A stretch of DNA of 64,000 bases from Tubulanus polymorphus. Its lineage: Eukaryota; Animalia; Nemertea. Below, one piece after another: positions 3,220 through 41,700 of this stretch. The notes under the pieces were generated by a model. The model made no database searches, was not told where the DNA came from, and worked only from the letters and a program-made list of their open reading frames with translations. The stretch's first letter is position 1. Every line of letters begins with the position of its first letter. The DNA is taken from contig NC_134031.1 of the NCBI RefSeq assembly GCF_964204645.1, positions 15,611,807 through 15,675,806 of the forward strand. The letters are read 5' to 3'. The translations under genes and the position numbers were made by a program.

Positions 3220-6200
3220 TTAAACGAAACGGTTCAATGCGGTTACTGTTACCAGGGACAGGGCGGAAAAAATGAAATAACGGAAATCAGCAGCATGCAG
3301 CGTAGGACTGGAACCGAAAGCCGTGTTATTCCAGGTCCATTTGCTGTAGCAAGATGTGAAATCACACTGTGTACCTGGACCTCGTGGCAGAGAACGATCA
3401 GCCACGATACCATTCTTATACTTAATACCATCGGCTGTCAAAGTATATCGAGAAAAAATGCGGTTAGAGATCATGTTCTATTACAATTTCATTACACTTC
3501 AATCTACATCGAAAGGGAGAATTATCTTTAATTGTGTTTTCTTGAAAACTATGTGTCCAGAGCCTGTTTACGGAATCACATTACTACATTTAGTTTCATT
3601 CTTATGTCCCTTCAATAATCTTACACAACGTACAGTACATGAATGCCCGTGTGTATAGCACGGGGCCCCCAGAATTCTAGAAAAATACAAGGATGCTATT
3701 ATATATAATGGACGTATTGACTAGGGTTGAACTCTTGCGATTTTTAAGTTTTCTTATAGACGTCGAATAAAACTCACGAGGACAGAGATTACAGAAGATC
3801 GGACACATGTCGTAGATAGCCGTCGTTTTACAGTCGTACGCCTCGCAGTTGTTATTGGGAAAGTCAATCGGGTTCCGCGTACAATCAACTAGGTATAGAA
3901 TTAAAAATAGAAACTCTTTCACTTGTATCGTGGTGCATAAGCCGCGATTCTATGAATGCCGAAGTTAATTAATTGGAGTGGGAATTATATAGATGTATAT
4001 TTATATACGATACGTACGTTGACAGTCGTCTCCCGAGACCCAGGGAAGCGTCATACCCCCGGCGTAAGTACACTTGCATGTACACGTTTTCGGATCCAAA
4101 ACGCCTCCATTTAGACAAACCTTTCCGCCGCAATCTAGAAATATATAGAAAAAGAAATCAGGTTTTAGCGCACGTGTCCTCTTAAGCGTGCGTGCTTAGG
4201 ATACAGTTCTGATATTAGATAATGGATATTGGCTATTTTTAACAATATCGCTAAGAGCAAGCAGTATTTTTTCAACGTCCATTGATGATCGAGTTTTATG
4301 TGTTTGTTTTTTTTTTGTACTGACCACATAATCCCGTCACGGAATCATAATTACTGCCGCAGTCTTCGCCTCTTTTTCCGCGTACGAACGGCCGGAATTC
4401 CAGCCCGAATGCGTTCGGCTCATTTCCTCTACACGTTAAGAACAGAGACGCAGAAAAAAATATCTTATTACAGAACGCGTAACACGAAAAGAAACGTTCG
4501 CGGTTAACAACGATTCATACGGATAAAAAATCCCAAAAAATGAATGAACTCACGCGGGTGCATAGTTGCATACGTGGTTTAAACCGTTGTTTCCATCAAA
4601 CGCGCACGTAGCCATTCCGCAACCGACTTTTATCGTGGAAGCCCACACGACCTGGAATTAATAGAATCAATTTAATATTTAAAGGGCTCAGTAATGGCTG
4701 AACTAAAATTCAAACCAGTTCCATATTTGATATTTGTGAATACATCACATATGAAAATGAATCTTACACAATATTCTATTTTGATGGCATATGCTCTTTA
4801 AACGTGCAAATGTAAATGATATATTTTCTCCAATTTTTATGGTATTACCCTAACATCGTGAAGCATGGTATTCCTGGGTCCAGTTGCATGCTCGTGATTT
4901 AAGTCCAAAAGTGGTCTTAAATCTTAACTCTTGGCTTTTAAGTTGTTAGATGGGCCAAAGAACTTAGTTCGCCTAATACTGTTGTCCAAGCCCTGACTAT
5001 GCAACTGGCCCCTGAAGATCACTATTAGGATAAAATCGAAAGACTTCGGGCTTATTCTTATTACTTATTGTGGGATTTTGATTATGCCTATGTCCTAGGC
5101 GCTGTAAGTTCAAAGCCTGCTTGAGCGGTGATGGTATGATCGTAACATTTTCTATGAACTATGCTTAAAGTAACTTTTCAGATAGTACAGTTTTGTATAT
5201 GTGAGAGAGTGCATGGAACTGTGAGTGGATCTTTTTTCTATTTCTAATTATCTAATATAACATTTTGATTTGGGGTGGTGAATACTACTAGCTATGCTCT
5301 TCCCCTCTGATAAATTATGTCAATCTATACTTAATTTTGTACAACAACGTACATCATTTGTTATGAATTGCTATAATTTTTAGAAAATACACAACAACAA
5401 TATACCTGGGTAAAATGCCCAGCTTCAGTGCCAGGCTTTGATTTTCCTGTTGTCCAATCGAAGAAGGGGATCTCATCGTACCACAGTTTGACGGCATCGG
5501 CCCACGAAAATGCGCCGTACGCCAAATTCTGACCGGTCGCATATTTACCTAAGAACCAAAAACTAATGAGAATTTGCTGGGGTTTTTTTCTGATAACGAA
5601 TGAAGGATTTTCTAGCTGCTTTGATTTATCAAAACTTAACCAGAAGTAGTTGTCTACTAACCTGGAATCATACGTTCCATGTTACTATCGTGTTCCATTA
5701 GTTTACACCTATCCGCCAGATTCTGAGCGATTCGCGCAGCCTCGTCGTCCCAATACTACGGAACCAGAGGAAAAAGAGTTTTTAGCAAATACTAGCTGTG
5801 TTTTATATGTCAGCAATAACAAACTTCGTTTTTGAACTATTATAATCATAATGTAAGCTTTAATTCATTTAATTTGAAAAAAAATGAATTTAAATTTCTT
5901 CAAAATTGCATAATATCAAACCTAAGCTTAGCTTTCGTATATAAAATACTGATATTATTTGTGCACACAAGGCTCGGTCCCGGACCTCTGGTGTTTAAGG
6001 CGATCGGCCACGGAAGGGTCATGATTTCCCTTTCAGGACTAATCAGGACTCATATCGCAGTCAACGGCTTTTTCGGATGTTGATCCGATTGTTCGGATGT
6101 TCCGACGAGCAAAAGGCAAATAAGTGGCCACCCAAATTTCAAAAAATTTTAAACTTATTATCCGCTTATAAACCCATGAAACATTGTCAAACTATGAGGA

Positions 6201-8169
6201 GAGAATCCCACAATGATAATAAAAAAAAGTCCGAAAAAGAAACTTCGAGATAGTAGTTTATTTCAACGTTTCGACTATATCCTAATAGTCCATTATTCCT
6301 GAAGATGACTATTAGGATATAGTCGAAACGTTGAAATAAACTACTATCTCGAAGTTTCTTTTTCGGACTTTTTATTATTATTGTGGGATTCTCTCCTCAT
6401 CGCGTCAACACGGATATAGCGTTCTACCAATCGTGATTGTCAAACTAAAAAAGGAGCTGTCATCTATGTTTAAACAGATAAAGGAAAACACGAATTAAAA
6501 AAAATGTCTTCAGCTTCGAAAACCGAATGTCGGTTTTCCGTTTTTGATTGACATTTCTTTCGTGATTGTGATATTTTCTCTGGTCGTACGACGACACTTT
6601 TTTTTTCTCTCGCGTTCCTGTTTTACGGACGCCAACGACTGCCATTTATTATCATTACCATTTTCATCATCATTTTCGGTTCGGGCAACACCTTTCCCCG
6701 GTACGCGTTGTGCGTATCGAGTATCACTTTAATATCGTCGGCAGAAACTCCTAAAAAAAGAAATTGATACACGCGAGAAAAAATTGACGAAACTTTCCAC
6801 GACAAGCGGCGATTCTATTTATCATAACGTTCTGACCTCTCGGTTGGTTTTTGACGTATTTGTTTCCCCACAGGCAAAAGGAACTGGTGCCGACTATGGC
6901 GCGATATTTGGCCGGACACGCCTGCAAGTGAAAAAAATGGATTAGAGCGAGTAAGTAATTTATATTTTTACCATGAATATGTACAAAATTTATGATAAAA
7001 AGATTCAATTAAAAGCAGTGAAGTACATATACAGACGAAATGAGCCTGGACAGAGCGATAGAGGCTCCAAAAGGATGACTTTGTTCAGATACCCGTTACG
7101 AGCAGTATAAAACGTTTTTGTACATACAAATGTAGGAAACTGTCAATCAATTGTTAAAACTCTTGAAATCAAAACGTTCAAGTCTCAAAATTGTAAATGT
7201 AGTTTAGAAAATAAAAACTTTCATCCGAAATAAAGAAATATTTTGCATAGTCTATATTCCCAACAAATGTTTTTTAGTCAATTTACAATTGTGTTACTTC
7301 TTATCTCGCCGCCAAAAAGGCACTTACGTTTTCTCCGAATACCAACTCGAAAAAGTTACCTAAAATGATAAATTAGATTTGAAAGATTCCGGTCGAACTA
7401 ATGTCATTTTAATTACACCACAAGTCATTCTCACGTTGATATACTTCTTTGTAATCATTTATGATTAATGTTCATACGCGATTTTTTGAAGAAAAAAAAA
7501 CCAAACAGTAGGACGTCGTCGACTTTGAACAATTGAAACTGTACGAAAACTGTGCGTTATTTTCCCAGTGAAATGGACGTATCATCATCAAAATTCTAAC
7601 CACGTATCTTAGGGTTTTGAGAGGTAACACGGTTGTTTTCCTCCGTTACAGTTATGATAATTAGCAACCTATTTGTCAATGTCACGCGCGGAGTAATGCC
7701 GCCAAGCCAGACGTAGCCTTGACTACCGTCAGCATTATTCAGAATTTACTACATCAATCGAATTAATTAAATGTTGAATATGTGCTTATGAAAATACAGA
7801 TTTCGTTACTTGGGTTCGCTTGATTGTTTTTGTAACCTATAATATATAAAACTTTATACACTCTAACCGCTTAGCTACGATTAGAGTGTTACGCCCAATT
7901 CGAACTCTATGACTATAGCTGATGCGAACCCACCATTGATTCCGAGGTTTTAATTTAGCCTCGTGGCTAGAGAGACCTGAACGGCTAACTGGTCTCCAAA
8001 ATCTGCATCCCCCTGATCTATCATAAGGCCGTCGTCGAGGTTGATTTCTAAGATAATGAATTAGAACCCAAGTTGTACAAGAACCCAATTATTCAAGCGT
8101 ATATAGTAAATACTTACCTGCTATCAAAAGCAGCAGCAAAAGATTCGGACACACCTTCTCGGGGCGCAT
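3220..8169 (-). CDS. CAP/SCP-domain (CRISP-like) secreted protein with EGF-like and ShKT domains and a hydrophobic, GPI-signal-like C-terminus. Exons 8169-8118, 7359-7328, 6921-6837, 6750-6659, 5755-5662, 5548-5406, 4651-4554, 4428-4325, 4134-4018, 3888-3778, 3434-3220
   Basis: Phase-consistent GT-AG splicing. Signal peptide MRPEKVCPNLLLLLLIAG; CAP motifs HNAYR, YWDDEAARIAQ, GQNLA, WYDE, GHFTQVVWASTIKVGCG, VCNYAPAGN; EGF-like CLNGGVLDPKTCTCKC; ShKT-type 6-Cys C..C..C..CPIFCNLC. Confidence 0.9.
4877..5011. mobile_element. PIF/Harbinger-like MITE
   Basis: TIRs GG(T/G)CCAGTTGC / GCAACTGGCCC and 3-bp TSD CTG (4874-4876, 5012-5014). Related copies at 22116-22222 and ~59514-59665. Confidence 0.7.
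6195..6435 (+). mobile_element. Penelope-like non-autonomous fold-back element with hammerhead core and 3' tail
   Basis: ~95-bp near-perfect inverted arms (6195-6290 / 6307-6400), unpaired 35-nt tail 6401-6435, 12-bp TSD ATTGTCAAACTA (6183-6194, 6436-6447). Confidence 0.8.
6293..6338 (+). ncRNA. Minimal hammerhead-ribozyme-like motif
   Basis: CTGAAGA (6299-6305), T, stem II GACTAT/ATAGTC, GAAAC (6325-6329), GTT. The palindromic AACGTT stands in place of helix III. Confidence 0.65.
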
Positions 8170-13731: not shown

Positions 13732-16700
13732 CTAAAGATCGCCTAATCTTCTAGTCTTCACTCGATTCCTTTCGCGAACTTGTCGAACCGGTAGTTGCTT
13801 GTTTTCTTCGGCGGCCGGGTCCTCGCACGTACAGCCCCTCGCGCACTCGGCGTCCTGGTCATTCCCGGCGCGTGTAAACGGCTGGACCGCGCCACCTTCC
13901 ACGGTCGACGCGCAACAGTCGCCGCCATCCCACTGACAATAGGCCCGGTTATTCTTTGCGTCGCACCAACTGTCCCCGATATACATCTGAAAAAGAAAGA
14001 GAGCGAAGCTTCGTGTGGACTTTTTGCTGCCGTAAAACCATTACAATAATGTTTTATACATTGATACCTAGTATTAGTTATACCTAGTTATTTAAGGGGT
14101 TCTGTGGACTACGTCATCAATAGTGGCGTTTCAATGTAACAATTAGAATTTTGGAGTTTATTCTATAATTGAATATATTTCATAACTAATACTTTATTTT
14201 TGATAAGTTTCAAATTATTCTTTTGAGGATGTGCACCACGTCATCAATAAATCGGGGCTAGACTGGTTACCAGTCAATTCAATTATCAATATTCAAATCC
14301 AAAATAGCTTTATTGATCATTCAAACTTTCAAGTTTCATTTTTCTTGTTTCATAAATGATATCGAGAATAACATCGGACAAATCTATAAACATTCATTTT
14401 ACAGATATTGACGTTCCCGAGAAATGAAAGCTTTTGTATCCCTGGCAACGTGTTTTAAATGGAAATGCTAATTATCTAGTTTAAACATGTCAAATCATTT
14501 CGTACAATTTTTGAAAAAGACTTGTAAGATAAAGACCCACTATTTACAGATTTAAAAGTTTCGAAATCAAGAATTTGTCCAATCGTCACACCTGATAATG
14601 ATCTCTTTTGAGAGTTCGAAACGCCGTGTCAATTTAAGTTTTGAACGAATAAATTTTCTATTTAAAACTTTTAAATCAGTATATCGTGGGTTTATATCTA
14701 TTATTATCTCCACTTTTGATAGTAGCCATCTTTGCGAGATAGAATACGGTACAGAATAAGTATACGTACCGCCATACATTTCTCGACGCACCCCAGAGAC
14801 GTAACCGGTGGGAACCACTCTTGCATACCGGTGCACAGAATCTGGTTTTTAGTAAGTTTTTCAGGGCCCGTAATTCTGCCGTAATTCATAACTACATCGT
14901 AGTACTGCATTCTACACGATACCACGCATAACGAACCTTTCAAAACAAAATCATACATCTCGATCAAACTGTATAAATTGGTTAAAGGTTTTTGGAAGAC
15001 ACATCACGGTTATTGGGTTACTAGGCGTTTCGTGTTGATGTGTGGATAATTGTTGGTCCTGAATAACCGTGGGAAGGTTTACAACATACTAAAATGCGAA
15101 TAATTACAACAAGGAGGCATTAGATTTAGTAAAAGATAACCATAACAAAATGAACTACAAAACATCATCGGCTATTTTGGAAGATATCTCTGTTTGAGGA
15201 AATTAGTGAACTATAGCCTATACCATTGGCATTTCAGTAAGGAAGTCCATGCCCAAGGGAAGGCGCCTGCTTGAGACTCGTCAGAGATCAATCTCGTTGA
15301 TGACGTCACGCGTATGATGTCATCAGTATGATTAGGCATACAGTTGTATGCGAAAGTTTACGAGTAAGTGCTCTAATTTCATCCAGAGTAACAAAGTGTT
15401 AAATGGATTTCATTAATTAAGATCATGACCTATTTTTCTTATGACCCCCATCAACCAACAAGTCGAAGACGGGTATCTTGCTAGTGCATAGATATATATG
15501 TTGAGTTCGGTTGGATCTCAATGATTACTCGTAGGTTGGATCGTGGTTTGTTTTTGATACTGACCAATCTTCGTATCTGTACACCTAAATCTAAGTATAT
15601 GATTCGCCGGTGGCTGCGGGCATTTCATTTCACCGAAATCGCACATGGTAAATGTGGAATTCCAGCGTCCGTTCTGGCGGCAAATGATCCACGATGAAGC
15701 CTGAATGATGGATAGAGAACGGATAAAAAAATCATATATACAATATATACTTAACCTAAGACCCATAAGACCTAATGCTAATATTGCTGTTTATGTAGTT
15801 TGCGACGGTCAAAATTGTTATAATGGTTTTGGTACAACCATCAAATGCCGTAGATATTTGGTATATCTATAGTCTTATGTTCAATTGTGGGTTTAGTATA
15901 TCAAATATTGTAAATGGATATCACTAAATCTAAGACACCTAAACCTAAGACCTCGGAAACGTAAGAGGTTCTTAGATTTTAAGTCTTAGGTATAGAAACA
16001 CCCGAAAAATTTCATATCATGAACCGAAGCTCTCGGATAAAACCTAAAGAAACAAATTAAACGTACCCGCGCGGCTCCTGGGCACCGTAAAGCACACGTG
16101 CTCCCGGGTAGCAAATCATTGGTACAGTTATACAGGCCGGAGAATACGCTATTCGGCGGGGGACACTTCACCGGAACGCAAGTTGGACCAAACCATTGTC
16201 CGTTATCATCGCAAACTAAATGAGAAACTCTTCTGAAATCGTAAAATGCATAGAATTTTCAAGTTATATACGTACGAAGTGTTTATGGCATTTTACGGTA
16301 ATTCTTTAACAATTCTGATCATCGCAACCTTCGCATAGGCATATCTTCTACGTGGTAACCTCTTTTGCATTTATATCGACACTTCGTGCCTACAGTGTGG
16401 CTCTCGCGGTCCAGACACGTTCTAGTCACCAAGTGCGCGTCGTCGTCAACTGATGGCGGAGTACAGGTCACCTGACAGAACGCGTCCGGTAACGACCACA
16501 GCCCGTCGGCATCGCACCGGATGATATTGTTGCTTCCTGAAAAGACGAATTTACAGAGTCGGAATATGAGACGGACAACTTCTCTCCGAGTCACAGAACC
16601 TTCTCATAGTTTGGCGGACATGCATTTGGGACATCAACACCCATTACCTACCCCAACCCGCAACATTCAACTGATATTACTGTTCAAAGTCATCACCTGT

Positions 16701-19700
16701 TTCTGGAGAGCACCTTTGATAATAGTTCTACTATCTATGAGGTATACAAATATTTACAACATTTGCAAGCTATAAAAATACATAATCCTATCCTTTCATA
16801 CATCATATGAGAGTTTCTTTGTGCCGTCCGTTGGGTTGACAATAATTTGGCCTCAAAGCTGCTCAACAAATTCACTAGGTAAATAAAATTTCGCATAAAT
16901 TGTAATCTCGAAATTGTATTTCCCTTACCGAACATACGCGCAGGCAGGTTACATTTGAAGGAACATTGACTGCCGTGTTCGGTACCTTCGGGACAGACAA
17001 CCGTAGCGTAGAGGATATCAGGATGCCCGCAATCTACTGGCTTGCAGAGGAGATTGGAAACGGATCCCGATCCCGAATTCACCCATTGCTGTCTCGTACA
17101 CATGACTTCATCTTCGTACGAATCCAACGAATAACTACAAAAAATAGAGCGATATTTCCTTATTCAACTTCAAACGACGAGGACGCGTTTCCGAGACGCT
17201 TTGGATCGAGCCGGCAATACCTAGAGTCTAGAGAATCTGAGATTGGGATAATCCGACAGCGCTAAATACGGAACGTATCTCAACACATCTGGACAATATT
17301 CAGGCAGCCTTTTGGCTATAATGACGAACGATCCTACATTCACTGATATCTAATGTTAATTTTTCTGAATGTTTCTAGATTTATCTAAATCCCATCATCA
17401 AGCTAACGGTAATTCATCTACAGTGAGAATACATCATCAGTCGGTCAGCGTTTTTTCAACTGTCTAAAATAATAAAGACTTTGAAAGTCTAAGCACACTG
17501 CAGATTAGTGACGTACGAGATACGTACCCGGTGTTACAGGCGACTTTACAAGTATCGCCATCTTCGTTCCCCGTGCAAGCAGTTTCTCCGTTGGCTACGT
17601 TCAATTTATTGCAGAGTGGTCTCTTGCAAGTGTAGGCGACGCAGTGTCCGGTATGAGGGTTGTACAGCTCGTTAGTAGCGCAGTTGCCGATAGTGATCGG
17701 ATCTAAGTGTTTCGATGAACGTAAGGTGACGGCGGCGATGGCAATGTGGTACGACCGGAATCTGATTATGACCCCTTTATAAATGCAGTAGAAAAAACAC
17801 CTTATCGAGATGACGTATATTCATTAGGCTAGAATAAGGTGATACATTGTCACTCCTAACCGACTGGGTCATGTTTTGCAAACTGCAATGAAATTTGTAA
17901 CCAGTTCATTTCTATCTGCCCCGGTCTACTATGGCTAGCTTGATCATGATTCTTTAAAAAGTTCAACTTTTAAGCTCAGCAGAAAGGAGAAACGAGATAT
18001 CAATTTTTGGCCAAATGCATTCATCGTTTTAAAAGTTTTGATAATGGATTTAAAACCCAAATTTGAACGATGAAAAATTGAATTAGTTTGTCAAATGAAA
18101 TGGAAATTCAAAAGAAACGATAATGCGGACTCTCTTTAAATACCATCTTCAGGAGTCTTATGAGGTGTCTTTTAATGAATAGATTTAGTTTTTTATCTTT
18201 CAAATGTGTATATAGTTGGTTAGTCTGCTATAGTCTTCACGTCTGAGTGTGGCTATCGGCGGTTTATTTAGATACCTTTCGTCCTGAAGAATGGTTTGCT
18301 CAAATCATGCATCACATCGACAGTTACGGGATTGTCTTTGCATTTCAGTTTCACATCTTTATTGCCTATCGGGTAATTGTTACCGTGTTCGTCAGTCAGT
18401 TCCACCGAGAGGGCTTTCGTTTCCATGCTATACTTCGTTATTCCATCGGAGGCCAGGTGAACCACTACGGCTACCGCGATAACAGGCGTCGAAAACTGAA
18501 CCTAAAGTAAATAATCCAAATAAGTTTTTCTAAAATAGATTTTCGAAACAAACCTCGGTTATTCAGCAAGGTGTGTACACTAGAATCGTAGAGCGACGGA
18601 GATCACTGTGGAAACAACCACTTCCAGTAATGATTTCGCAGGGGCTTGTCACAATAGCTGAGGGCTTAAAATAAAAAAATCGACCCAGGATCCTATGTAC
18701 CACCTATAAAAATTTCTTTATCGGTGGTACCTGGGTCGAATCTTTGATTTTAGACATCCAGCTATCGCGACAAGCCCTCGTGGACTGGATGAAGAACCTA
18801 CCTTGATCCAGAAATTGTCATCTTCGGTATAATGGCCGCATGGATACCACGATAATTGCGTGTCTATTTTTGCCTGACAGGTCTACAAAATGATATTTGA
18901 AAAATAGATCCCACGCTCAGAAAGAAAATCTAGTCCGTAAAGATTTCCTTTAAAGTTAAACATAGATTTCCGACGTTTCGACTATATCGCAATAGTCATT
19001 TCCAGTCAGGAATACTGAAGATGACTCCATTACAGATAGTGATATAGGTATCAATGCGAAAGCCAATGTAACGTTAAGCAAAAACTTTTGTCTCCTTTCG
19101 CTTCAAAATTCATCGCTATTAATCACACAAGTCGGTTTGACGATATACTTACCATAGTTTTCGGCGGTGGACCTATGACAACACTTTCAGGACAATCGTG
19201 TCGTTGGAACTCGGGGTTCGCGACGGCAGATATAGCCCACTGATCGACGAATCCGTCCGGTGTATAAAACCCGCAGTCGTGGATACTCGATCGTTTCTCG
19301 AACTCTTCGCATTCACCGTCGCCGTTATGTAGGTAACAAAGACTAGGTTGCCCTGAAAAATAGGGTTCAACTATGATATGATGATAATGATGTATTTTCA
19401 TACGAAATTTCTACAGAATTCATGAATAAATTACAAAAACATTAAAAATATAATGATATTATATGAAGGACTGCGCAGCACTAATAACGTAAATGAATTA
19501 TTTTCAAATTATTTCTTAAATGTTCAAACATGAAACGTTCGCGCGTGTCTGACAGTCGTTTTAAGTTGAATTACGCGCACCAAGTGCGAGAACGTTCAAA
19601 GATCCATATCATAAAATAAAACATCTACATAATAACTTGAACTATAGAATTATGCGGTATCATGATGCTATATGTGTAGTCATGTAGTTATTTAAGTGCT

Positions 19701-22700
19701 ACTTGCAACAACCGAACTTGTAGTCGAAATGAAGTCTACATAGTAATATGAGTGGGATTCGAGCTGAACAGGTTAGCAGCTCATTGTATGCAGTGCAATT
19801 CATATAACCAGTGAATATACGCATTACTATTCAGCTGCGATGGCCGAGTGGTTAAGGCGTTAGACTTGAAATCTAATGGGATCTTCCCGCGTAGGTTCGA
19901 ACCCTACTCGCAGCGAAATTTTTTCCTGCTATTTTTACCTTTACAATTGAAGAATCTTTCTATTTTACATTTCATAGTACAGCCGTCACCGTCTACAGTA
20001 TTTCCATCATCGCATTCTTCTCCGTTTTCTCTGGAATTGTTTGCAATTACATTTATTACATTATAATCAATCAACTGCTTAAAATCTGCTATAAATGAAC
20101 TTAATGTAATAAATGATCATAAGATAAAAACCCGTTATATATAGATTAAAAGTTTTCAAAAACCGAGATTTTATTCAATCAGGTTTCTAAAACTTTTAAT
20201 CTGTGTATAGTGGATTTTTCTCTCATTATCCGTTGGAGTGTGGTTATTCTAATAATAATGAACGTACTTTTCCATTTTTCCGTTGCCGCAGTAAGGTTGT
20301 CCGTGTTTATATGTGAGTATTGGTGACGGACCACTCGACTTCTTACCCATGATCGCGATCACTTGATATTCGTAAGATTTTCCAACTTCGACATTCCTTG
20401 ATGTAAATTGAAAATTGAAATGGATCGCAAAAGATGTCAAAAATAATACGTCAAACGGGTACTAAGCCTACAATTGATTTTTTCCCGACTCACTAACAAA
20501 AAAGTCAGTAAACCGCAAATAGTATTCTGCTGAAGAGGGTTTAGAGGTAACTGATAGATAGATTCAAGTGACTGTTTATGCCGATCTCACCTGTCCAGAT
20601 ACACCGGGATATTCGTCAATGGATTACTGTGCGTGAACTGCGGGTTTCTGGTTATCTGGTATTTTACTGGTTTACACTGTCGGCACTCGGAATTATCAAG
20701 TCTCGAGACGAGCTGAATGGCGTCTATTGCCACAAGAGAATTTGCCAAAACAACCCTCACCTATTCGATTACAACCAAATATATCAAATTATTCCGCGTA
20801 AATTGAATTCGTTCTGGAAGTGACAATAAGCTCGCTTGCCACGGCATCGTTTTGATGTCGTTCTAATAACGACAGTAGCGGCTCTCGACTATCGCACGTG
20901 CTGCATGCCGTCGGGATTCACCATTTCGCCTTTTCAAGTGCCCTCAAGATATCTTCACGAAATAGCGCGCGCTTATGTGCACAACAGGTTGAAAAAGTTA
21001 ATTAAGTAAATAAATATTCATTCAATGTGATCAATCTTTACTTGAAATTTCCCTTTTTGATATTTTACGTTTCTTAAGTGCCCGAAAAATGCATTAGAAT
21101 AACATGGAATTTCAACATGTTTAAAAATGTTCCAACTTCCAAACTTCGTCTCTGGCAGGGCATGGATATTGGCCCTTTTTTAAAGTTAACGCCCTTTTCA
21201 TTTCTTTGCCCTGTATGTCATTTTAGTGGCCCTGGATCCGCCTCTGAACGGGTGAGTTATCCACGCGTGAACGCGCTCTCTAATTAGGCGCGGACCAGTT
21301 TGACTTGGGTCTGGTCCGGACTGGCTTGACCTGGGCCAAGTCGTCACGCAGTGCGACCGTGGGTTTAAATTCACCTTCTGAACGGACTGGTTTACATCCA
21401 AGCGTGTAGTGTATTCGACATCGCAGTAAGCTTCGATCGGTCCCAGGTGGTGTTTCGAGCCATCAGCCAAGTACAAAACAACATCCTTAACACCGTTCTT
21501 CGCACCCAACGTCAGTCACAATTTCAAACTAACGAAATATATTTCAGAATTTAACGTGAAAATTGGAAGTCAGTTTCCGAACAAAAAGGTTGAAAGGAAT
21601 CTAATCGAATCATTTTGTCACATACCGATGTGGAATAACTTTGTATTCGAAGAAAAGGTCTATGTAACAGTCGTCGAGGCATTCCATACTGGCCGGGGCC
21701 CAGGTGTTAGCACTCAATCCACATTCTTCAGCGTCAGGCCCTCCTGAAAATATCGGTATAAGATGGCCATGAGCCGCGGTCTCACAGTGAGGGGATCACA
21801 TTGACTCGGCTAATCTGGAGGCCAAACGTCTGCGTCGTCACCGTCCTTCTTACCCGTGGCCTGAACTGGAGAATAATCGTGATGGCCGCGGAAATAGTTC
21901 GGCGAAACAGCGCGACTGGCGAACTGGACCAGCGAACCATCCATCTGACAACTATTACATACTTCATTATCCCCGACGATTTTGGTACCGAGTGGAGGAA
22001 CCCAGGATAACGTGGCTGTGCTTGACGTGGTGGTAATTATCTGAAATTATACGAGAATTTACGTTTTTTTTCGGTTCGGACGGAATAAATTATAAAAACT
22101 GCTTTTAAAATACTTGGGCCAGTTGCCCAAAAGTTGGTTTAAGATAACCGATGGATAAATACCATAGTAACAATGAACTTTTGATTGTCATATGTCAATA
22201 ACAGCTTTTGAGCAACTGGCCCCTGTATTTTACCTTAGGTGCCAAAGGAGGTGGCGATGGCGCCTTAACGCGCTGCCAAGGCTGATATACAAGGTCAAGG
22301 TAGCAATGCATTCGCGCCATCTGTTGGTGAGTGAACGAGTCCATACAAGCATCGTCTGAAACATTAGGGATAATTCAAAAAAACGCCAGCGATGAGATTT
22401 GGAAATATCGTATTGAAAACGAAATTCATACCTGCATAACCCATGTAGTTTCGGAATAATGTATTGGTGAAAACCTTGAAACCGCATTGTCCACCGGATA
22501 AAGTATCTGGATCGGAACATTTCATATTTTTGGGGGTGGGCGGTGTGTCGGCGACGAGGTCACCGAGTTCGAGAGACGGTTCAATCTCGAGACATTCGTC
22601 GCTACATTCCATCTCGGTTACACCCCGAAACACGTGCCACAGCCCGAGAGTATGTCCGAGCTCGTGGATTAGATTGTCCGTCTTACCCAGCTTACCGAAC

Positions 22701-25700
22701 TTATCCGGATTAACCGTGGCTCCCCCTGGAGATGAAAGAAATTAAGATATTTAGAAACGGGATACAATTTTCCGCGTAGGTTTTTATTTTCGTTTAATCG
22801 TGACTCGAACCGTGGATGCCGTAGACGTTCTTATCCCAAGGGAACGTCGCCACGCCTAATATTCCTGTCGTGATCCAGTTCGCAAAGTATACATTCAAAT
22901 TTGATGACGCAGACAAATTCAGGAAAGACTTGTACTCGGCGATACTGAGATACGCCCTGAAATTTGAAGACTGTTTAACGATTCGTTTTGATTGTGATAT
23001 CATTCATTTCTATTAATCATGAGCAAAAAGGTTTGCGGCCAAAGGCATTCTCCCTCGGTAGGGATTCGAATCTGATGGTATTGCTAGACTCAGCTACGGT
23101 ACGAAACCCTGCTACACTAGATCAGGTGCGCAGGTACATGCGCAGGTTTGCCGCGAGAAAACTTGAGGCGCCAATCAGATTGCTCGTTGCATAATCGCTG
23201 AGACATATTTCACGGATAAACTATAATGGAAAAACCAGAGCTAAAATAAAACAGGATTTCTGATTGGTTAATGATGACATCACCTAAGCTGTGCATGAAG
23301 CACTCGGTTTATTGTGGCAGGATTTCGTACCGTGGCGTGTCTCGATGCTATCAGGTTCGAATCCTGGCCGAGGAGGATGGCTCACCGGTGAATAGACGTC
23401 GGATCGAAACATGTTTTCGATGTGTCTACGGAATTTGGGTCACAGCAATCACCCCCGTCCCACGAATGGTACTGTTTGTTACATTCAAAATCGCATCGTC
23501 CGTTCCCGATCCTATCGCCGTCACACGGCACCGTCATCAGATCGCAATCTCCACCATCGTTCCCGGTTTTGGGGTGATTACATTTCAGGTTACATCTACC
23601 GTTTCCTACTTCGTAGGGATTACATTCGTCGAGGATCGTTCGACTTCGAAGGGACGAATTGAATATTTTATGTTCGGCCATAGTCCAGGATATGTTATAC
23701 GGCATGAAAGCCTGATTCAGCGCTTTCTGTTGGATGTCCATCTGCAGTGACGTCACCGTCGGGTTCGTACCGTCGTCGTTGTAAACGTTCACCAGACGAT
23801 AGTTGATCATCTTCGGTCGGCGAAGACCCGAATTGGCGCTGTAACTTCTAATCACGTCGGGGTCGTCGCACACCGTACGTCCGCAAGGTGGCACCACCAG
23901 CGAAGGGTAGTTAGCCTTCTCCGGTATATCGGACGGGACCGAAGCGGGTCCGCTTTCGGTGTGGTTCACCCAGTTGTGCAGACCGTCGAAATTCTCCAAG
24001 ACAACCAACCCGTGTCTTTTCGCGAACGCGTGCTGCAGGGATGAAACGATGTCCTTGTGCTTCAGCGGGTAGTCCCAAAGCCGCACCTCGTCGACAGTAC
24101 CCCGGAAGAAGCTCTGACCGTTGTAGTCCCCCCCGAGCAACAATTGCTTGCATCTTTGCAACGAAGCGCTGAACAGATCCCCACGTTGCGTGTGGCCGAC
24201 TGCCACCTTCGCTCCGTCTATGTGGAGTTTCATTTGGCGGCCGTCGTAGATGACCGCTAGGTGGAACCACCGAGCCGGTATATAAGCCCTTAACGCCCAT
24301 ATCGTTTCTTCGATCGGTGAGCGGTCGGTGCGGAGCGAGAAATAGAGTCTGGCTCCGCGATTGCCTTCGCTGGGGTGGATACCAACACTCCACGTGCGTT
24401 TTCTATTCGAAGCCGTTGTACATACGTCATAAACGCCTGCAAGAAAAATATAGAAATTACGAAGAAATTTGTATTTGAATGATTTCACTCAATATACAAT
24501 TCAAAGTTCATTGAAAATGAACTGATTTCGACAACGCAAGGATTAGGATTATGATTAGGATTATATTTACACTCCAACTATGTTTAAGGTACATGGAGGG
24601 AGAATGTAAAATATACAATATTTTTAATCAACAGAAAATATGAACTCGTCTTTATGATACATAACAAAAAACGAGTGTTCGTCGCACCATCTGTTGGTAT
24701 AGCTGGATGAATAATTCCACTTTATACTATACAGCTTTAAGGCAAAGTTAAAGATTGTTTTCATACGTGGGTACGAAGGCGACAAAACATTTCGTCGAAA
24801 GTTTCCGGTTCTTGGAAACGACCGCACGCTTGTTATAAATCGACGAATCAAGTCAATCCACGCCCAAACATCTGAATTCCATTTGCGGATAATAAATCTT
24901 GCGTTGATGGTAATTTTTTCTTCTTATAAATCGGTTTTGACGCCTTGACTATTGGCTATGATCGGTAATTGAATGTGTTGGTTACTTTCTACTCATTTTG
25001 ACCTATTAGCACAAGTTTTTTTTCACTATCGTGAATATCATCGTCACGCCTGTTATTATTACATCATCGAGGCCCTGATCTACGAATTTAGAGAATACTT
25101 TGTCGTAGATCTTATTCCAAAAACCATTCCATTTTTTATTTCCAACGCGTCGCGATAATAGTGACGCATTCAGATGTAAAACGGGGGAAACAAGAAGCGA
25201 GACGCTCGGGACATCTGTGCGTGTCGCATTTCTGCTCGATGTCGGCGAGACGGGCCTCCATAAACCAGCCCCCATTGAATAAACCGACTTAATTTTTCCG
25301 CCCACTAACATCATCTCGCATTTTTATACACCCTCAGCGCTACGAAGATTGCCTTCGTGATAAAACAAAAAAATCTGCTCGCCACGTTCTCTTGGACTTG
25401 TATTTCATTCGTCCTTGTACAACGGTATATCATACACTTAGATCATATCCTATACCTTCCCGAGATCGTCTTCAACGACGCCGTGTTGATTTCGGTTCGT
25501 TTCGGTATGTTGAACCTTGACGTGCCTTTGTAAATATTATCAATTTTTTTCTTTGCCAATGTTTCATAGAACATGATAATCGTTGATATTCAACGCTCTG
25601 TAAAGAACCCCGCGTAAAGGTACAAAATCTTTAAAAATTCGTACAAACACAACATGATATCGGCGCGACTGGAGTGACGGACTCACGCTGCGCGCATTCA

Positions 25701-27304: not shown

Positions 27305-30300
27305 TTATAATTTCGATGCTGGTTTTCTCGCCATCGTGGCCTGGATGTTTCCGGATGGTTTATCAGTTGGAATGAACACCTAAAATAGAAGGCAAATTCT
27401 AAGAAGTTCAGATTTACTTTTTACGGAATGTGACAACCACAGACACAGGCTCGCAACAGCTGAACGAGCATCTTAGCGATCTAATATAGAAAATCTCACA
27501 CCCAAAAAGAAAATGAAAAGAGTCTGAAAAGCTTTCTTTAAGTTAGGGATTAATTTTCGACTTCTTCCTCATAGTCATCGTCAGAGGAATGAAAATCTTA
27601 AAAGCATTTTGCTTATTGGGCCCCTTAAGTTCATCGATATCATAATTTCTGTAACATATTGTGTTATATTATATTATAATTTCGATGTAAATAAACATGA
27701 CTATTATTATCATTATCATCATTATTGTCATTATTATCATTAAAATGAATACCAGAAGATGACTATTAGTATTTAGTCAAACGTCGAAATTAAATCATTA
27801 ACTAGAGAAAACTTTATCGGGTTTCTTCTTCGTTTTTTTTTTCTTTTTGAGTGTGGGATTTCTTTTATGGTCGTTACAGCACGGTCAGAGCGTTCATCAA
27901 TGGTGATCTTATCAATTAATCTTCAACATCGAAGATGCTGTCAAGCTGAATCGCGGTATTTTTGCCCTACCTCGTCATTTCTAGTAATATTCAGCCTTTT
28001 GAATTTAGAGAAGTCCGCCTCGTAATGGTGAACATTCGGCAATTCTATATCCATTGACTCAATCTGCAAAAACAAATGAACATATTATACTTGTAAGTCG
28101 TTATTCAGCGACAAGGATTTTGATGATAGTATTGCATCGTTTATACCTCGGGAATCTTCTCGAGGACTCGTTTTTCTGTGAGGTACAAAGTCTGTTGTAC
28201 GGACGGCGAGAATACTCCAGTATCGGCCGGTCCGGCGAACGTGTCCAGTATTTCACCTTTTACCTTATGCCTTTTGATAGCGGTTTTCGAAAATGAAATG
28301 TTAAGGAAATTCGTTAACAATAAAAACCAAGCTCAATCACACAGTCGAATTCAGGTAAGTCGTCAAAGATAGGGCCATTATTACGCTGACGACTTATCAG
28401 AATGACATTTACACTTAGTTAAATTGAAATGTAAATACAAACTGTGACTCAAACATAGAGACTTTGTAATGTGACGACTTATCCGATGACGTCTTTAAAA
28501 GTTACTTCAGTCAGACTTGGTAAGCTCATTATTATTGGTTAGCTCATTAGTATCATATTGGTTAGTTCATTATCATTGGTTAGCTCATTATTTTTTGTTT
28601 ATAGTTCATTGTTATTTGTTACCTCATTATCATTGGTTACTATTATTTAATATTATTATCAATATTGATATTACTATTGGTTACCTCATTATCTGGTTAG
28701 CTTAATTCTATTAGTAGGTTGATTATTATTGGTTAGTTCAGTTAGTAACTGGCTTGTTAGATGATTACATCTTAATCACGCTGTTATCATAGTTTATTAT
28801 GTGTGCATTTTGTGTGTTCAGGGTTGACTGTGAGCGTGTTTCTTCTTCATTGCATTTCTCTTTTTCACTTTTTCTTCACTTTTCTCTTTTGAGGGACCTG
28901 TTTTATGTAAACTTTTTTTTTATTTTCTACAGAACCCTCCAAGTCTGATTTACTGTATTTTGTATTATGCTTTTGTACACTATGCTGTAAATTATATTTG
29001 AAAAATAAAGCGTTCATTCATTCATTCATTCATTCATTCATTATTATTGGTTAGCTCATTATAATTATTGCATAGTTCATTGTTAGTGGTTAGCTCATCA
29101 TTATTGGTTAGTACGTTATTATTGGTTAGTTCATTATTATTGGAAAGTACGTTATTATTGGTTAGTTCGGTTTACAAAATGATTATTTATTCGGACAGAA
29201 TTCTTTTCGATGGAAATAACCTACCAGGTTTTACAAAAGTCGACGCCGGTTGATCTGTTGTACTTCCAGTGCGAAGAAACGACCGTACAAAAAATTCGGT
29301 CGTCCATATCCGGCAGCGTTCGGAATTCATCGTCGACGAAATCGACGAAAGCCGATTGCGTGGTTTTCATAACTTTCAAGCCCTTGACACCGGAAGTAAT
29401 TCTCGGAGGTCCTGCGTGAAATTTAGATTAATGATAGCGAAAAATGGAACTTGATAAATTCTAGAAGTATTCATAAGGAATTAAACTGGCATACCATAGC
29501 GTTCTTGTTCCACCTTACAGAAACGGATGGATTCAGGGCTGGCTATAAATGCGTGATTATGTTCTTTGCCATTTTCCTGAAAAAAAATGTATTCTAATTT
29601 CCGCCTCTTAACGAGGCAATATGATATTTCTGATTAATACATGAACCTCATCAATAATGAAAGAACCCAGTAGACATTATACTACAGAAAGAACCTCGTT
29701 AATACGGTTCTGTTCAAGACGAACCCCGGTTTATAATGATGATTTCCAGCATGTCCCAGCTAACATGTTTATATCAATAAAGCTTTACATAATACTAAAC
29801 CCGTTACAATATAATTTCACTTTTGCCCCATACAAGAATCGTATTAACAAAGTTCCACTGTTTAAATCTAAAATTTAAAGGGACGAAAGAGAGTCCGAAA
29901 TGTCGCATCTATTTATCTTCTAGTTTAATTCTTTGCGTTTTCAATCTTTCAAATTTGTATATGTGCAGCCCCATTATCCTGTTACATTTTTCTTCGTTTA
30001 ATCATATTCTGTTATATCGTCTAATAATGTAACATTTTAATGAAAATAAATTTCAATTTCAACATATAGCGGGTTTGAATCACAGATTCTGCACATTCGT
30101 ATGTGGCCATTCTAATAGGCTATTGTCGAAAAAAAAGTTGCGTCATCACCAATATGAATTAAGATCAATATTCGGCCCACTTACGACGATCCGTCTCCAG
30201 TTGTATTGATCGATGCTGATCTCGGCTTTCGACACGTGCGGGTACTTATTCAAAAAGTGCTTAGTCAGTTGCATGGCGAAGATTTCAATGCATCGCACCT

Positions 30301-35700: not shown

Positions 35701-38700
35701 AGTTCGGCACGGGCCTGCTGATACCGGGCTCCTACAGATAAAATGGACCTTAGTAATAGCAAACATAGTTTTGATTAAATACCATTTGCTCATCGGGTAC
35801 GCCCATTGGCGCCGATTCTGTATTTATCGCTACACATTGTTCACATTTTAAGGTTATGATAGTTCCCGATGGAGAATGGATTTATGTCCGTTGTCGTAAA
35901 CGTATAGTTGTCTAGTTTTACGATTAAGCGATCCGTGAAATGGCCGTTTTTACGGCACGTGTGTGGTGCGGTTGTCGCTTTGAAAATATCCATTACGAAA
36001 TTTACTGAATTCGCACTAAAATTGCTGCCACGAACCGGATCTTCCCGGATTCCCTGATATCTTCACGTCCCCTCCTCGTAATCAGTAGATCAGAAATAAT
36101 CCACCAGGATCGCTAGTGGCACTAGTTCATCGTAAAAATATTTTGAATTTGATCTCTTTTGGCAATCTTGATATTCTTCCTACAATCCACCTTGCAAAGT
36201 TCAGGCTTAGGTGTACATAGATCCCTCCAATAATTAGTATGTTAGTATTGAAGTTTATAATATTTTCTGTTGATTGTAAATATCATATATTTCATAGTCT
36301 CCCCCCATGCCATAGAAATGGTCGGAGTGTAAATGAGATCCTGTTCCTAATCCGTATCCTGTCGAGCTTCAATTTCCGTCTACATTTAAATTAAATTCAA
36401 ATCGACTTTTCTCATTAGTAAATCAATTTTCAGTGAAATCTCTACCCAGACACTGAGTGAGAAAGCGGATCTTATATTTATTCGATGACTCGTTTGATGA
36501 TATCCGGATGTAGAAGCCTAACAGTCAAGTTCGAAATGAAATTTCATCCAAAAATCACCCGTTATTTTGTTTTGTTGCGCCATCTGGTGAGTGCCGGTAT
36601 CAAATTAGTCGCTTCACCACCCAAGGGCAACCATCGACCGATGTACTGACAGGCACCAGATGGCGTGACTGTACGGTCAGGCTAAAACAGTATCTGGAAA
36701 GCAAACCAAACTTAATTCAATACTTTATAAAATATCTTTCAATTTGTTTTTAATAAGGGATAAATACCGATACCTCCATCGTATTAAGGAACATAACTGT
36801 TCAATGACCTCGTGGGTGATCAAAAACTTCAAATAGTTGCTTTTTGTTTCTTGTACCTAGGTGGAATCGTTGTCGTCAAGATTAATCTTCACGTCAACGA
36901 GATAAGCTCGGTAAACGACTTCTCTATGGTAAGTTTTTCATGCAGAAATCTCTCTTAAGACAAAAACCGAGCATAAATAATGTGTTTCGAGAAAGCGTCG
37001 TTTAATACTAACGAATAACAAAATGATGACGTAGTTAAACAATAGCAATCAAGATTCCCTTTCTAACTCAAAGTTCACCGACTGGATCCTCGGGCGAAGC
37101 TAAATTGGCTCATTTATTTCGACCGGTTCGTTTTGTCTCGCGGAAACACACGAATTAGTGGAGATAACCGCGCAAATGATGACGACAGACCGATCAAATA
37201 GTTCCATATTCACGTGCACGTCGAAACCGCAATCCTTAACTAACTTCGTCGTCATTTATTTCAATTACAGGACTATCGTATGTCGTTCTACTTGCGTCAG
37301 AGATGGAACGACCCCAGACTGTCGTCGAATAATTTCCACAACTCGAACGTTCTCGTACTGCGGTATCCGGATTACACTAAACTCTGGCTGACGGACTTAT
37401 TTTTCACCAACGAAAAGAAATCGTCGTTCCACGAAGTCACGTCGCATAATTCCTATACTAAGGTCTACCCCGACGGCAATATATTATTTAGCCAAAGGTA
37501 CCAGCATAATTCTGTACTAACATTATCTTGATTCATTCACGATCATAGACGGAGTATTATATCCGTGTTGTAATAGCGATGATATCGAAGATCCCACAGT
37601 AAGAAATGTTTCCTTGAGCTAGTTGTTTTATTCGATATTTCAACTATATCATTATAGTTATCTTCGGTAATATTTAAATGCTTATACTACTTATAAGGTG
37701 ACTATTTGATCTTAAATAGGGATTGTCCCAATTACTTATTTGATTGGTAGATTCTGTTTGATTTGTCTTGATGTGGCATCCCTGTCAGACCCACCACACC
37801 TGCGGGGAGTGGAACAAGGGGTTTGAATTTGAAATCAAAAATCGAAGTACGGATATAGTTGTGTGATCAGCGGTCGAAAGAACAGAATTTTCTGTTAAAA
37901 TTGAAGAACATAATTGGAAATTTCGGTTCCGGTTCATGCAAACAATCATCCAGCCAGTGTGAATAAGATGACTATCAGGATATAATCCAAACGGTGAATA
38001 AACTACTAGCTCAAGGAAACATTTCGGACTTTATTTTTCATTCCCAGCATGGGATTTGGATGTATACGATTTATGTTTATATAATTCTGATTGAACAGTT
38101 CAGGGTACTGAATTCACACCACATTTCATTTTACCAAAGTATCCACATTATCCCATATACACTGACGTGGGCGTTTCATGTTAGCACTCAACTGCACCGA
38201 GAGTTCTAACCTACACGCTCATCATCAAATCGTAATAACATCGGTCTTGTATCGATTGATCGAATACCGGTAATATTTTTCTACGGTAAAACACTTTTCA
38301 GTTCGTCCTGTGTTGGAGAGAGATCGCACGGCGTAACGAAACAAATCGAAAAAAAAACCCGCGTCGATTTCATATCGGAGATAGAGTTGTGATTTATTAT
38401 TCTGACGCCGATATGCATCGTGTACCAACTTGACCGCGAGCATGGATTGAAGTCGTCATTAATTACCGTTAATCTATTTTCAACACACAGCACGCTGCAC
38501 GTAAAGCTCTTATCGGCAATTAGAAAAAATCGACAACTCCAACTTGAGCTACGTATGTGGTGCTACGTCGGTGCGAAAATAGATGTGATGGTCCACTTCA
38601 TATATCATATTTTTAGAATGGCGAATTCTGAAAATTGAGAATGGCGAATTCTGAAATCGAAAACCTGCCAGGTTTAATATCATATCAATATCTAGTCCTA

Positions 38701-41700
38701 AAGCTACTCCAGACATCTCGACAGATACTCTCTCTACTGGAAATCTATTTGAAGCATTGTAGTTATCAGAAACTAATCAATTTGACGAATAACTAAAACT
38801 GTACCCTCAACTAAACTGATGTAGTCGAATTCGATAATGTCAACAAGTTTCGTTATTGGCAAACGATTACGTTGTTTAAGTTCCTAAAAAATTTCCAAAT
38901 TTTTCTTTGTTCCGTTATATTTGCATGTCGTCTGCGAATGCTCAATTATTGATGCGAACGAAGCTAATCCTTAAAAAGATAGTGTCTCATATTTGATCCC
39001 ATGAGAGTAACCTGCCGTTGTTGGGCCATTCTTCGCGAAATGGTAATGGCCAGTTTACGTGGCGTTGCATTTACTATTTGTCTTCATAAATATAGGATTA
39101 CTGACGTGAAGATAGTTGCCACTTTTCGGTAGCATTTTCGGATTCTCTTCCGCAATCGTAACTTTTCAAGGGAAAAATCGACTCGGGTACAACCGGAAGC
39201 AGCGTGATGTTATCACCGGAAGTTGATGCGACGCGCTACTGATGTCATCTATCTTATAAAAACTATCCAATTGCCTTGTTACACCGTCGACGGAATAAGA
39301 TACGCAGTTATTGAAGGGCACGTGTATAACACAGGAAGACGCATTGACAAATTACTGAGATCATTCAGAAACCAACCATACCATATCAATACTTCATGCC
39401 ATCGTTAATGGCCGATAATGGATCGATAAGCCCGAGTTTTTATCGTATATTTTTAAAAACCCATTTAAAGGATATCAGATATGACATATTTCGCTCGTAT
39501 CATTCAAACACGGCAATATCCAAGATAAAGTATATACAGGTGAATGTAATTGCTACTCGTGACCGCGGTGCGAACGAGATATGAAATGTAATGAAACTCT
39601 CTTTCATTCGAGAGTTAATGCGAAGATCTACCCCAATGACAACTTATTTAACGCATCCGATATTTTCATGAGTTTGAGAACTGCTCTCGTCTTTAACGAG
39701 TTAAATTCAAGCTAAAAGCTTTGGATTGTCAGAACTGTCGGCTATTTGCGACGATGAGTGGGAATAGTATATTTTACGAAGGTACAAATCATCAACTTGA
39801 TCGTTGATTTCTGACAATTTGACAAGTTTCAGCGTGTACAGTATTTTATTTCTAACTTAAGGTATTTTGAACTCGTCCTTTCCTCGACGACACTTTTACA
39901 CAAACGAGCTTTTATGTGAACGTATCTTAATGATACTGCGCACTACACCCTTAAGATGTAATTTCTTCCGGGTCTAGAATAGTCCGAAGAACTGTTTTCT
40001 CACATCATTCTCGTCTCAATCTACTATCATTCTTTCCTTATTCACCGACGGCAAGATTCCATCCCTAGCCTCGATTTGTCGTTCTCTTTGTTTTCAAGTA
40101 ATTTCTGGATCAGTCATCCACATATCCATCTCATAAAAACTTTGCTATCATATGCCACTATTTAGATATAAGATTTATTTTGTTTGAATTGACTTGAGGT
40201 TCTTCATCCAAAGTGAGATGGAACATAAGGCAACGACACGTTCTCTCCAAGTTCTAGCTACATATCGTTCTACCCGCAGCGCCTCGTCCCCGAGTCAACC
40301 CCAGTTTCAGCTCGCCTCCTGGTTACTTTCGGGCTGTCTCTTCCCTCGGGGTACCAATGTAGGGCTGCAGTCATCGATATGCTGCCAGGCTCCATTCGGA
40401 TTGACATCTGCATCTCAGTCTGCGCCGTCTGATTTCGTTAGGTGCCCTGTCTGTGTCCTACCACGGAGGTCTTCATTCGAGATTTTCCTTGGCCAAAACA
40501 CCTTGCAAACGCGCCATAGGCATCTTTTGTGTAAGGCGGACAGCCTGTTCATCCTTGGGTGTTCGACGAGGCTTCAGAGCCACGCAAGAGTAGAATTGTT
40601 AAGCATTTCCTTTCAATTGCCGGATGTAATTCGCCCACCGGCTTCATGTATGCCTCTCGGGTAGTTGTCATTTTCGTGAGCTTCTTTGTCGTCGCCCCGA
40701 GAAAAGGCGAAATCGAAGAAACCTTTGTAAGGGTATTATGAGAACGTTTTTCAATTATTATGCGCGAACAGCAAGCAGATACCGATCTGAATCCATACAT
40801 GACGTTTGCCATGGAGAATATTGGTCCCGCGGGGCGTAACGTTCACGCACTACGATGCACGGAAATCAGTAATATTGCTCCCCCGAAAAAATATCCCGCA
40901 TGCAGAAAGCATCGTTTCCCTCAGTGGTTATCCATTATCGGACGATCATATGAAGCACACTTCACTTTAGCCAGCGTGTTGTTCCAATGGTTTCATTTAC
41001 GGACTTCCCAAGGACTTCAATCTATGTCATTTAGTTATTTTCGGATATTCTCGATGCTTAGCATAACAACAAAGTTACTTCCGGAATGTCTTTCTGGCTG
41101 TTTTCTCATTGATTCTTCCCAAAATGCGTAACGATACTTTTTGATATTTACGCAGTATTTGAGTCAAATAAAGTGCCTTTCATAACACGATTATAGAAAA
41201 TAGAAACATCGATTGTTTAACGAGAGAAACCAACGATGATTCAGTCAAAGATTATTGAATTAAAGAGATTTATCTTGAGCAACGTTTCGGCTAAACACTA
41301 TTACCATCATCAGGCGTACTAGAGACTAGAGATCAGTGCGCCTGATGATGGCTGATAGCGTTCAGCCGAAACGTTGCTCAGAATAAGAAGAATTTAGAAC
41401 AACAAGAATTTTTCATCTTTGACTGAATCATCGGGTAATTTCACTTGTCATCCATCTAACACGGATAGTGTGTATCTTCTCGACTCGTTAATTGTTTATT
41501 TACAGACTGTCGGCAACGCTGTCGTGTCCAATGTGTTTAACTAATTTCCCTTTCGACTCCCAAACGTGTAACGTTTCTATGGAAAGCTGTAAGTTAACCT
41601 TTAAGTTTTACGCTATCGGGTATTAGTCATTTTATAAACGACTTTCTGCACACTACTGGCAGCATATTGCCATTCCGGGTGTCTGATTACATTTCAATAA

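Follow-up and report, generated by a model that had tools for sequence, protein, structure and literature searches.

A head-to-head insertion with a minimal hammerhead motif in Tubulanus polymorphus and its probable Penelope-like origin

A stretch of 64,000 nucleotides from the nemertean Tubulanus polymorphus (GCF_964204645.1, contig NC_134031.1, positions 15,611,807 to 15,675,806, referred to here at its full length as the window) contains a fold-back insertion at positions 6183..6447 with the core of a hammerhead ribozyme at its axis. The locus raises the question of what kind of mobile element leaves a near-perfect hairpin with a ribozyme motif on one strand and a tail at one end, and how its two arms were made. 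A first inspection of the letters, the sequence-only reading, had proposed a non-autonomous, ribozyme-bearing retroelement. The origin of the focal insertion from a Penelope-like element (PLE) is well supported and is held here with high confidence. The evidence comes from the insertion itself, from related copies in the window, and from public contigs of three runs (X1, X2 and X3) of one study, which were aligned to 5700-7000 at 85% likeness.

Anatomy of the insertion and its hammerhead core

The inserted hairpin comprises 265 bases including both copies of the target-site duplication (TSD), and the insert proper is 241 bp. The left TSD (6183..6194) and the right TSD (6436..6447), both read on the + strand, are exact copies of the 12-mer ATTGTCAAACTA, which begins with ATT; a match of this length is expected by chance at 1.3e-7 per position at the local composition. 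The edges of the TSD are ambiguous by 1-2 nt, and its real length may be 9-12 bp because the final A (A6194) also pairs with T6400 at the arm end and because 4 of the 8 contig pieces listed stop at 6437. The arms are oriented head-to-head and are separated by a 16-nt spacer (6291-6306). The left arm (6195..6290, minus strand) is an inverted, tail-less, 5'-truncated copy that does not contain CUGANGA, and the right arm (6307..6400, + strand) runs to the tail-less end point given by the arm alignment, with long loose contig ends behind 6395 and 6401. Alignment of the reverse complement of 6195-6290 (96 nt) with 6307-6399 (93 nt) gives 92 identities, 1 mismatch, and a 3-nt gap that falls within a T-run. 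A one-sided tail of 35 nt (6401..6435, + strand), which features AACACGGAT at 6407, lies between the right arm and the right TSD. The near-perfect arms of about 95 bp, the perfect 12-bp TSD, and the unpaired 35-nt extension are thus present as the sequence-only reading had described them, and its proposal of a recent insertion also holds up: the copy is judged to be young because 92 of 93 arm positions are identical and the TSD is intact.

The hammerhead core is read on the + strand and has the order that had been claimed for the axis. The head-to-head junction (6291-6293) and the 5' strand of helix I occupy 6291..6298, where the family 5' boundary is located, and related copies read CAG immediately before 6294. 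The CUGAAGA box (CTGAAGA, 6299-6305) is followed by an extra U (T6306) between positions 9 and 10.1, so that 6299..6306 features the box and the inserted base reported for minimal hammerhead ribozymes (min-HHRs) in the excerpted text of PMC4209133. Helix II (6307..6324) consists of 6 bp (6307-6312 with 6319-6324), including G10.1-C11.1, and a 6-nt loop, with predicted pair probabilities of 0.95-0.99 in the half unit. The segment 6325..6332 contains GAAAC (6325-6329, with the GAAA box at 6325-6328), an ACGU palindrome within AACGUU at 15.2-16.2 in place of helix III, and the GUU triplet with the UH box (6331-6332), so that the predicted cut falls after 6332. The 3' strand of helix I (6333..6339) carries one bulged A in the predicted fold. 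All boxes therefore occur in order, together with the long helix II, the extra base after A9, and the palindrome, and the assignment to the minimal, PLE-type hammerhead that lacks helix III stands. The left arm extends only as far as the first base of helix II, so that the minus strand has no complete core. This restriction of the core to the + strand, the weakness of helix I, and the cleavage triplet, which is GUU in the focal copy and has C at 6332 in 70 X1 contigs, were absent from the sequence-only reading. Additionally, in 213 X1 contigs the alignment breaks off at 6335 and the bulged A is absent.

Among nine copies in the window, the mean column identity is 0.87 for the core boxes, 0.76 for helix II, and 0.80 for loop II; it drops to 0.48 in the 5' strand of helix I and to 0.52 in the 3' flank, figures that carry an ascertainment bias since the copies were found by similarity to the hammerhead region. 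This is the excess of conservation in the core over its flanks that had been put forward as a check. The extra T is kept in 9 of 9 copies and the palindrome in 6 of 9. Covariation was found in helix II, where 4 of 6 pairs have changed on both sides (score 0.463, reached in 0 of 500 shuffles), a statistic that takes no account of relatedness among the nine copies. A compensatory change in the palindrome was also considered and was not upheld: the contig variants (CA, TG) fit CpG decay, and the window offers one clear ATAT case.

Folding predictions weigh against activity of the focal copy. Helix I can be drawn as 3 bp, a bulged A, and 3 bp, and its predicted pair probability in the half unit is about 0; the ribozyme fold of the half unit lies 8.7 kcal/mol above the minimum. 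The ribozyme of the focal copy is predicted to be masked in read-through RNA because the full hairpin (-154.5 kcal/mol) lies 46.6 kcal/mol below the ribozyme fold (-107.9 kcal/mol). As the arms are arranged in the sequence, dimer cleavage in cis cannot be expected of the focal copy, because the second arm is on the opposite strand and has no CUGANGA. In the excerpted literature, min-HHRs showed no cleavage as monomers and weak cleavage as dimers (PMC4209133), the ribozyme of an anole PLE depended on its protein and was not required for insertion in vitro (PMC11167929), and 8 of 9 Xenopus retrozyme dimers failed to cleave (bioRxiv 10.64898/2026.07.22.740005). No copies beginning at the predicted cut site (6333) occur among the loose-end rows listed, a position at which detection is poor. 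The hammerhead is likely a passenger in the focal insertion. No hammerhead family appears among 14 Rfam matches at E up to 10, of which the top matches are hairpin artefacts far under the gathering score, or in an Rfam scan of the whole window at the gathering score; this absence is expected because helix III is missing.

Boundaries, abundance and related copies

The contig data show that the unit is very abundant. The number of matching contigs is 1,737 in X1, 267 in X2, and 372 in X3, and the summed depth in X1 reaches 352,000-381,000 over the core, compared with 30-37 in the flanks; summed contig depth is not a copy number and is read as very high abundance only. At the 3' end the X1 summed depth falls from 58,096 (6431-6435) to 8,181, 87, and 30 across 6431-6450. 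Among 6 of the 45 rows listed for X1, the loose ends behind 6436/6437 are heterogeneous (agreement 0.46 and 0.42), and long loose ends also occur behind 6395 (7 contigs) and 6401 (6 contigs); the yardsticks for agreement are 0.42-0.46 for genomic flanks and 0.55-0.60 for loose ends within the family. The loose ends behind 6395 and 6401 mark tail-less family ends. Unit 3' ends therefore recur at 6435-6437 and near 6395-6401, which makes the one-sided tail of 30-40 nt a family feature. At the 5' end, 185 and 56 X1 contigs have long loose ends before 6294/6295 with an agreement of 0.43 (among 18 of the 308 rows listed), which resembles genomic flanks and not loose ends within the family, and the consensus of these ends finishes in CAG. 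This pattern indicates a sharp family 5' boundary just 5' of helix I.

The junction between the arms behaves differently from the arms themselves. The depth at 6292-6293 (1,552 and 1,771) is 1-3% of that at 6294-6296 (68,025 and 114,946), and where the left arm ends (6289-6290) a separate depth table has a value of about 20,000. Among 15 of the 21 joints listed, those from 6219 to 6291, 6219 to 6294, 6225 to 6294, and 6226 to 6298 represent other hairpins with shorter left arms; in these four the short arm ends elsewhere and the long arm begins at 6291-6298. The hairpin was not amplified as one fixed unit, because the junctions differ between copies and the junction depth is only 1-3% of the arm depth. 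This result suggests that each insertion produced a hairpin of its own.

In 7 of the 1,737 X1 contigs (over 6289-6335), hammerheads were observed as head-to-tail pairs that repeat at about 65-70 nt and resemble one another in their junction. These rare tandems of about 70 nt are the only head-to-tail units seen in the contigs, and it is possible that they are natural dimer ribozymes. In X1, single contigs connect the element with each of its flanks, and no empty site was found among the 15 of 21 joints listed, with X2 and X3 not covering the flanks; the missing empty site is no evidence of fixation, since X1 is possibly the source sample and contigs drop rare variants. A metagenome scan gave 7 loci that share only the core of about 30 nt, none with a PLE open reading frame (ORF) of at least 150 aa. 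A viral scan gave at least 132 loci, and only core-length matches occur among the matches listed for these and the 7 metagenome loci (139 loci); 2 of the 139 loci listed carry the core and ACACGG, versus about 1.5 by chance in a hand estimate.

A profile search, in which the seven seed copies match by construction and the highest score among 10 shuffles was 5.8 bits, and a covariance model reveal three further head-to-head pairs in the window, each tailed on one side, so that the one-sided tail is found in 4 of 4 pairs examined, the focal copy included. A sister insertion of another subfamily (41212..41498) features two head-to-head hammerhead arms, a tail on the right only, and the exact 8-bp TSD ATTGTTTA. 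An older pair of the focal family (27470..27913) has its tail on the right and a TSD-like match of 7/8, and another older pair (37540..38089) has its tail on the left and no clear TSD. The spacers of these two wider pairs are not mutually homologous and have no other match in the window. Both clear TSDs begin with ATTGT, and the TSD length varies (12 versus 8 bp, both exact) at AT-rich sites. TSDs of one fixed length with symmetric element ends had been named in the sequence-only reading as grounds for giving up a retroelement; the lengths are 12 and 8 bp and the ends are asymmetric. Exact AACACGGAT sites in the window number three, and all three are inside tails, 97-115 nt downstream of a core, although only the site at 41458 does not depend on the way in which the copies were collected. 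Shuffled sequence yields 0.55 exact sites and 0.2 joint cases, with at most 2 in 100. The tail motif is common to several subfamilies whose sizes are similar. Three window copies read TCAGT or TCATT at the 5' boundary before helix I, which we take to be an initiator (Inr)-like TCAKT consensus.

Other hairpin remnants were also noted in the window. Further decayed hammerhead-bearing arms are located at 18813-19080, 5005-5120, and 58284-58395, and a junction at 19011-19018 consists of a TCAG/CTGA overlap (TCAG-5 nt-CTGA). Two fold-back elements belong to another subfamily, one with a hammerhead-like core (14527-14750) and one with no hammerhead core and a 7-bp TSD-like repeat (20094-20263).

Origin and competing explanations

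The anatomy of the insertion can be set beside published PLE insertions. In the excerpted text of the cited papers, insertions of endonuclease-bearing (EN+) PLEs feature an inverted truncated pseudo-long terminal repeat (pLTR), a 31-bp tail, and an 8-10 bp TSD (PMC3846280), an inverted truncated copy with a one-sided tail of 30-40 bp is described for PLEs (PMC8557442), and pairs of min-HHRs on opposite strands 100-700 bp apart were ascribed to truncated PLEs (PMC4209133). Studies of an anole PLE protein in vitro determined that both target strands are nicked and extended, that 5'-ATT-3' is preferred, and that the reverse transcriptase (RT) starts at two internal sites bounding the tail (PMC11167929). 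The description of the focal copy as a non-autonomous ribozyme-bearing retroelement is retained as far as the PLE origin is concerned; as far as it implied a self-propagating family it is less probable, the varied junctions suggesting a separate hairpin for each insertion.

The mechanism that is narrowly preferred is a dead-end insertion in which a PLE RT and a GIY-YIG endonuclease copied the first ~110-145 nt of an element RNA twice. What is seen directly is the anatomy, together with 3' ends that recur at two points, a sharp boundary at the 5' end, and junctions and TSD lengths that vary; the steps behind these features would be as follows. The endonuclease would nick the two strands of an AT-rich site at positions offset by about 12 nt, and the RT would prime at each nick, with the distal internal start giving the tailed arm that ends at 6435 and the proximal start giving the tail-less arm that ends at 6400. 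One cDNA would run to the 5' terminus of the RNA, immediately ahead of helix I, and the other would stop sooner, the two cDNA ends would be joined head-to-head, probably via a short TCA/TGA microhomology, and gap filling would produce the TSD. Priming once from each of the two RT start sites, on opposite strands, would yield what is observed, namely arms in head-to-head orientation with a single tail and a TSD, and the sharp boundary before helix I would follow from run-off at the RNA 5' end. By analogy with the anole enzyme, a need for RNA well past the start sites would favor dead-end stubs. A more tentative extension, which falls somewhat short of this in probability, is that the hairpins are an in vivo record of twin-priming PLE integration in which an RNA 5' initiator abuts helix I and the tail motif AACACGG is a cis signal for RT initiation. 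The tail motif has 0 matches in 3 supplementary files of PMC11167929 and 2 matches, apparently within coding sequence, in file 1 of PMC8557442. Twin priming with 5' run-off was not found stated for PLE hairpins in the literature covered, from which subscription papers are largely absent.

Several points weigh against the dead-end insertion. No match to patterns of PLE protein motifs was found in the 64-kb window, and no autonomous partner with RT and GIY-YIG was seen there. The unit has no ORF start, and the frame opened by the ATG at 6305 closes after 5 codons; in the anole element the ORF begins at stem II (PMC11167929) and the pLTRs of Adineta include the first 12 codons (PMC3846280), and the closed ATG favors a non-coding derivative at least as well. 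The subfamily traits, namely GUU and the bulged A, are present in both arms, as a fold-back from a single template would also give. The 5' boundary is drawn from assembled contigs of one study and cannot show an RNA start; the CAG could instead be a splice acceptor, and a D. virilis intron is reported to end at helix I (PMC4209133).

The strongest competitor is a self-propagating, non-autonomous mini-PLE, which is possible and clearly less probable. A template of about 145 nt with an internal promoter would spread as single or tandem copies using the same enzymes and priming. The very high abundance of the unit in all three runs, the lack of an ORF start, the tail motif common to several subfamilies of similar size, and the head-to-tail pairs in 7 X1 contigs are consistent with such a template, and the excerpted literature reports an internal promoter for Penelope (PMC2377424) and non-autonomous pLTR derivatives (PMC8557442; bioRxiv 10.64898/2026.07.22.740005). 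However, the anole RT needs RNA to +172 and initiates at +111-118 (PMC11167929), and by analogy copies that end at the start sites may not contain the required downstream RNA. Additionally, the read-through transcript of the focal copy is the predicted hairpin, and no master copy was seen.

A second arm made by self-priming is improbable. Here the cDNA would fold back on a TCAG/CTGA mini-palindrome at its 5' end and copy itself, a route proposed for Adineta, there on an antisense template (PMC3846280). The near-identity of the arms agrees with it, and the junction at 19011-19018 is what such a fold-back would leave, but the same junction would be given by twin priming with microhomology. Self-priming does not itself explain why the second arm ends at the recurrent point where the tail starts, and short arms with varied inner ends exist among the contig joints listed. 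The last alternative, a miniature inverted-repeat transposable element (MITE), that is, a non-autonomous DNA transposon, with a chance hammerhead-like motif, has the long inverted arms, short length, TSD, and high copy number in its favor and can be dismissed, as the sequence-only reading had held, because the ends are asymmetric, each of the 4 pairs examined having a single tail and the focal copy 35 nt of tail between the arm and the right TSD, so that no symmetric terminal inverted repeats abut both TSDs, the TSDs are 12 and 8 bp rather than fixed, most copies do not share the junction and have no uniform interior, and helix II covaries.

Host locus, significance and known systems

The insertion is located in a predicted intron of 903 nt (5756..6658, minus strand, GT..AG, phase 0) of a CAP/SCP-like gene, as judged by splice sites and reading frame, and the hammerhead is predicted to be antisense to the host transcript. 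The putative CAP assignment draws on a reading that fits a CAP motif and on a weak Pfam CAP match to a downstream exon (E 0.011), which is below the cut-off. The predicted multi-exon gene extends over 3677-6750 on the minus strand, and its Cys-rich downstream exons are EGF- and ShK-like by eye. Two symmetric inverted-repeat copies of about 335 bp (41973-42320 and 23046-23379) are 79% alike and in opposite orientation; the first has an exact 9-bp TSD, and the element looks like a true MITE, unlike the PLE stubs. Elsewhere, the window contains a pappalysin-like gene (22364-26440, minus strand) with Laminin_G_3, LNR, and Peptidase_M43 matches, a uricase exon (31073-31477), and a tRNA gene (19834-19915; Rfam RF00005, 66.3 bits). 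The pappalysin-like and uricase exons identify the stretch as intron-bearing animal DNA. Two coding tandem arrays at 47797-50247 (minus strand) have units of about 141-144 bp that encode a charged repeat of 47-48 aa with no convincing Pfam family, and a 214-aa frame at 54901-55545 resembles by eye the C-terminal end of ORF2 of a CR1/L2-type long interspersed nuclear element, with no Pfam match.

The single locus is an ordinary transposon scar in an intron, and what modest importance it has comes from the family. How PLEs integrate is not well understood, a single in vitro system being available (PMC11167929), and within the excerpted parts of the cited work head-to-head inverted ends are explained only by the self-priming proposal (PMC3846280). 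With boundaries this sharp at the 5' and 3' ends, the thousands of short copies could serve to test twin priming against self-priming without experiments. If the twin-priming record is true, thousands of junctions would allow the start sites of the RNA and of the RT to be located with no data beyond the genome sequence, and the ~70-nt head-to-tail pairs would be natural dimer ribozymes. PLE stubs of this kind are open to mislabelling as MITEs, and the regularities of the junction and the tail are a modest lead.

Metazoan non-LTR retrozymes share with the focal copy a non-coding unit, a type I hammerhead, kinship with PLE pLTRs, and a long TSD (excerpts of PMC7229834 and bioRxiv 10.64898/2026.07.22.740005). 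In contrast, retrozymes are head-to-tail tandems with mostly canonical cores and circular RNAs, and the focal copy is head-to-head with one minimal core. Membership in this group was rejected, as it calls for head-to-tail units each with a complete type I hammerhead and for a canonical core with helix III and an Rfam hammerhead match.

The min-HHRs of metazoan PLE pLTRs have the same CUGANGA, GAAA, and UH boxes, extra base after A9, G10.1-C11.1 pair, 6-bp helix II, and palindromic 15.2-16.2 with no helix III, and also occur as opposite-strand pairs; the focal copy differs from them in its GUU triplet and in its bulged helix I, which is 4-5 bp in those ribozymes (excerpts of PMC4209133). The Anolis Poseidon element PAc features the same placement of the tail about 100-130 nt downstream of stem II, an ATT target start, and two 3' end points, whereas its ORF starts at stem II and the focal ATG is closed after 5 codons; the PAc data were obtained in vitro and on another clade and species (excerpts of PMC11167929). 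The complex insertions of EN+ PLEs such as Adineta Pen2a/Pen2 show the same head-to-head inverted truncated end, one-sided tail of 30-40 nt, TSD range of 8-12 bp, and short junction palindrome (excerpts of PMC3846280 and PMC8557442). The focal copy differs from these in having no ORF between its arms and a unit of only ~110-145 nt, and the layout of the insertion is one already described for PLEs.

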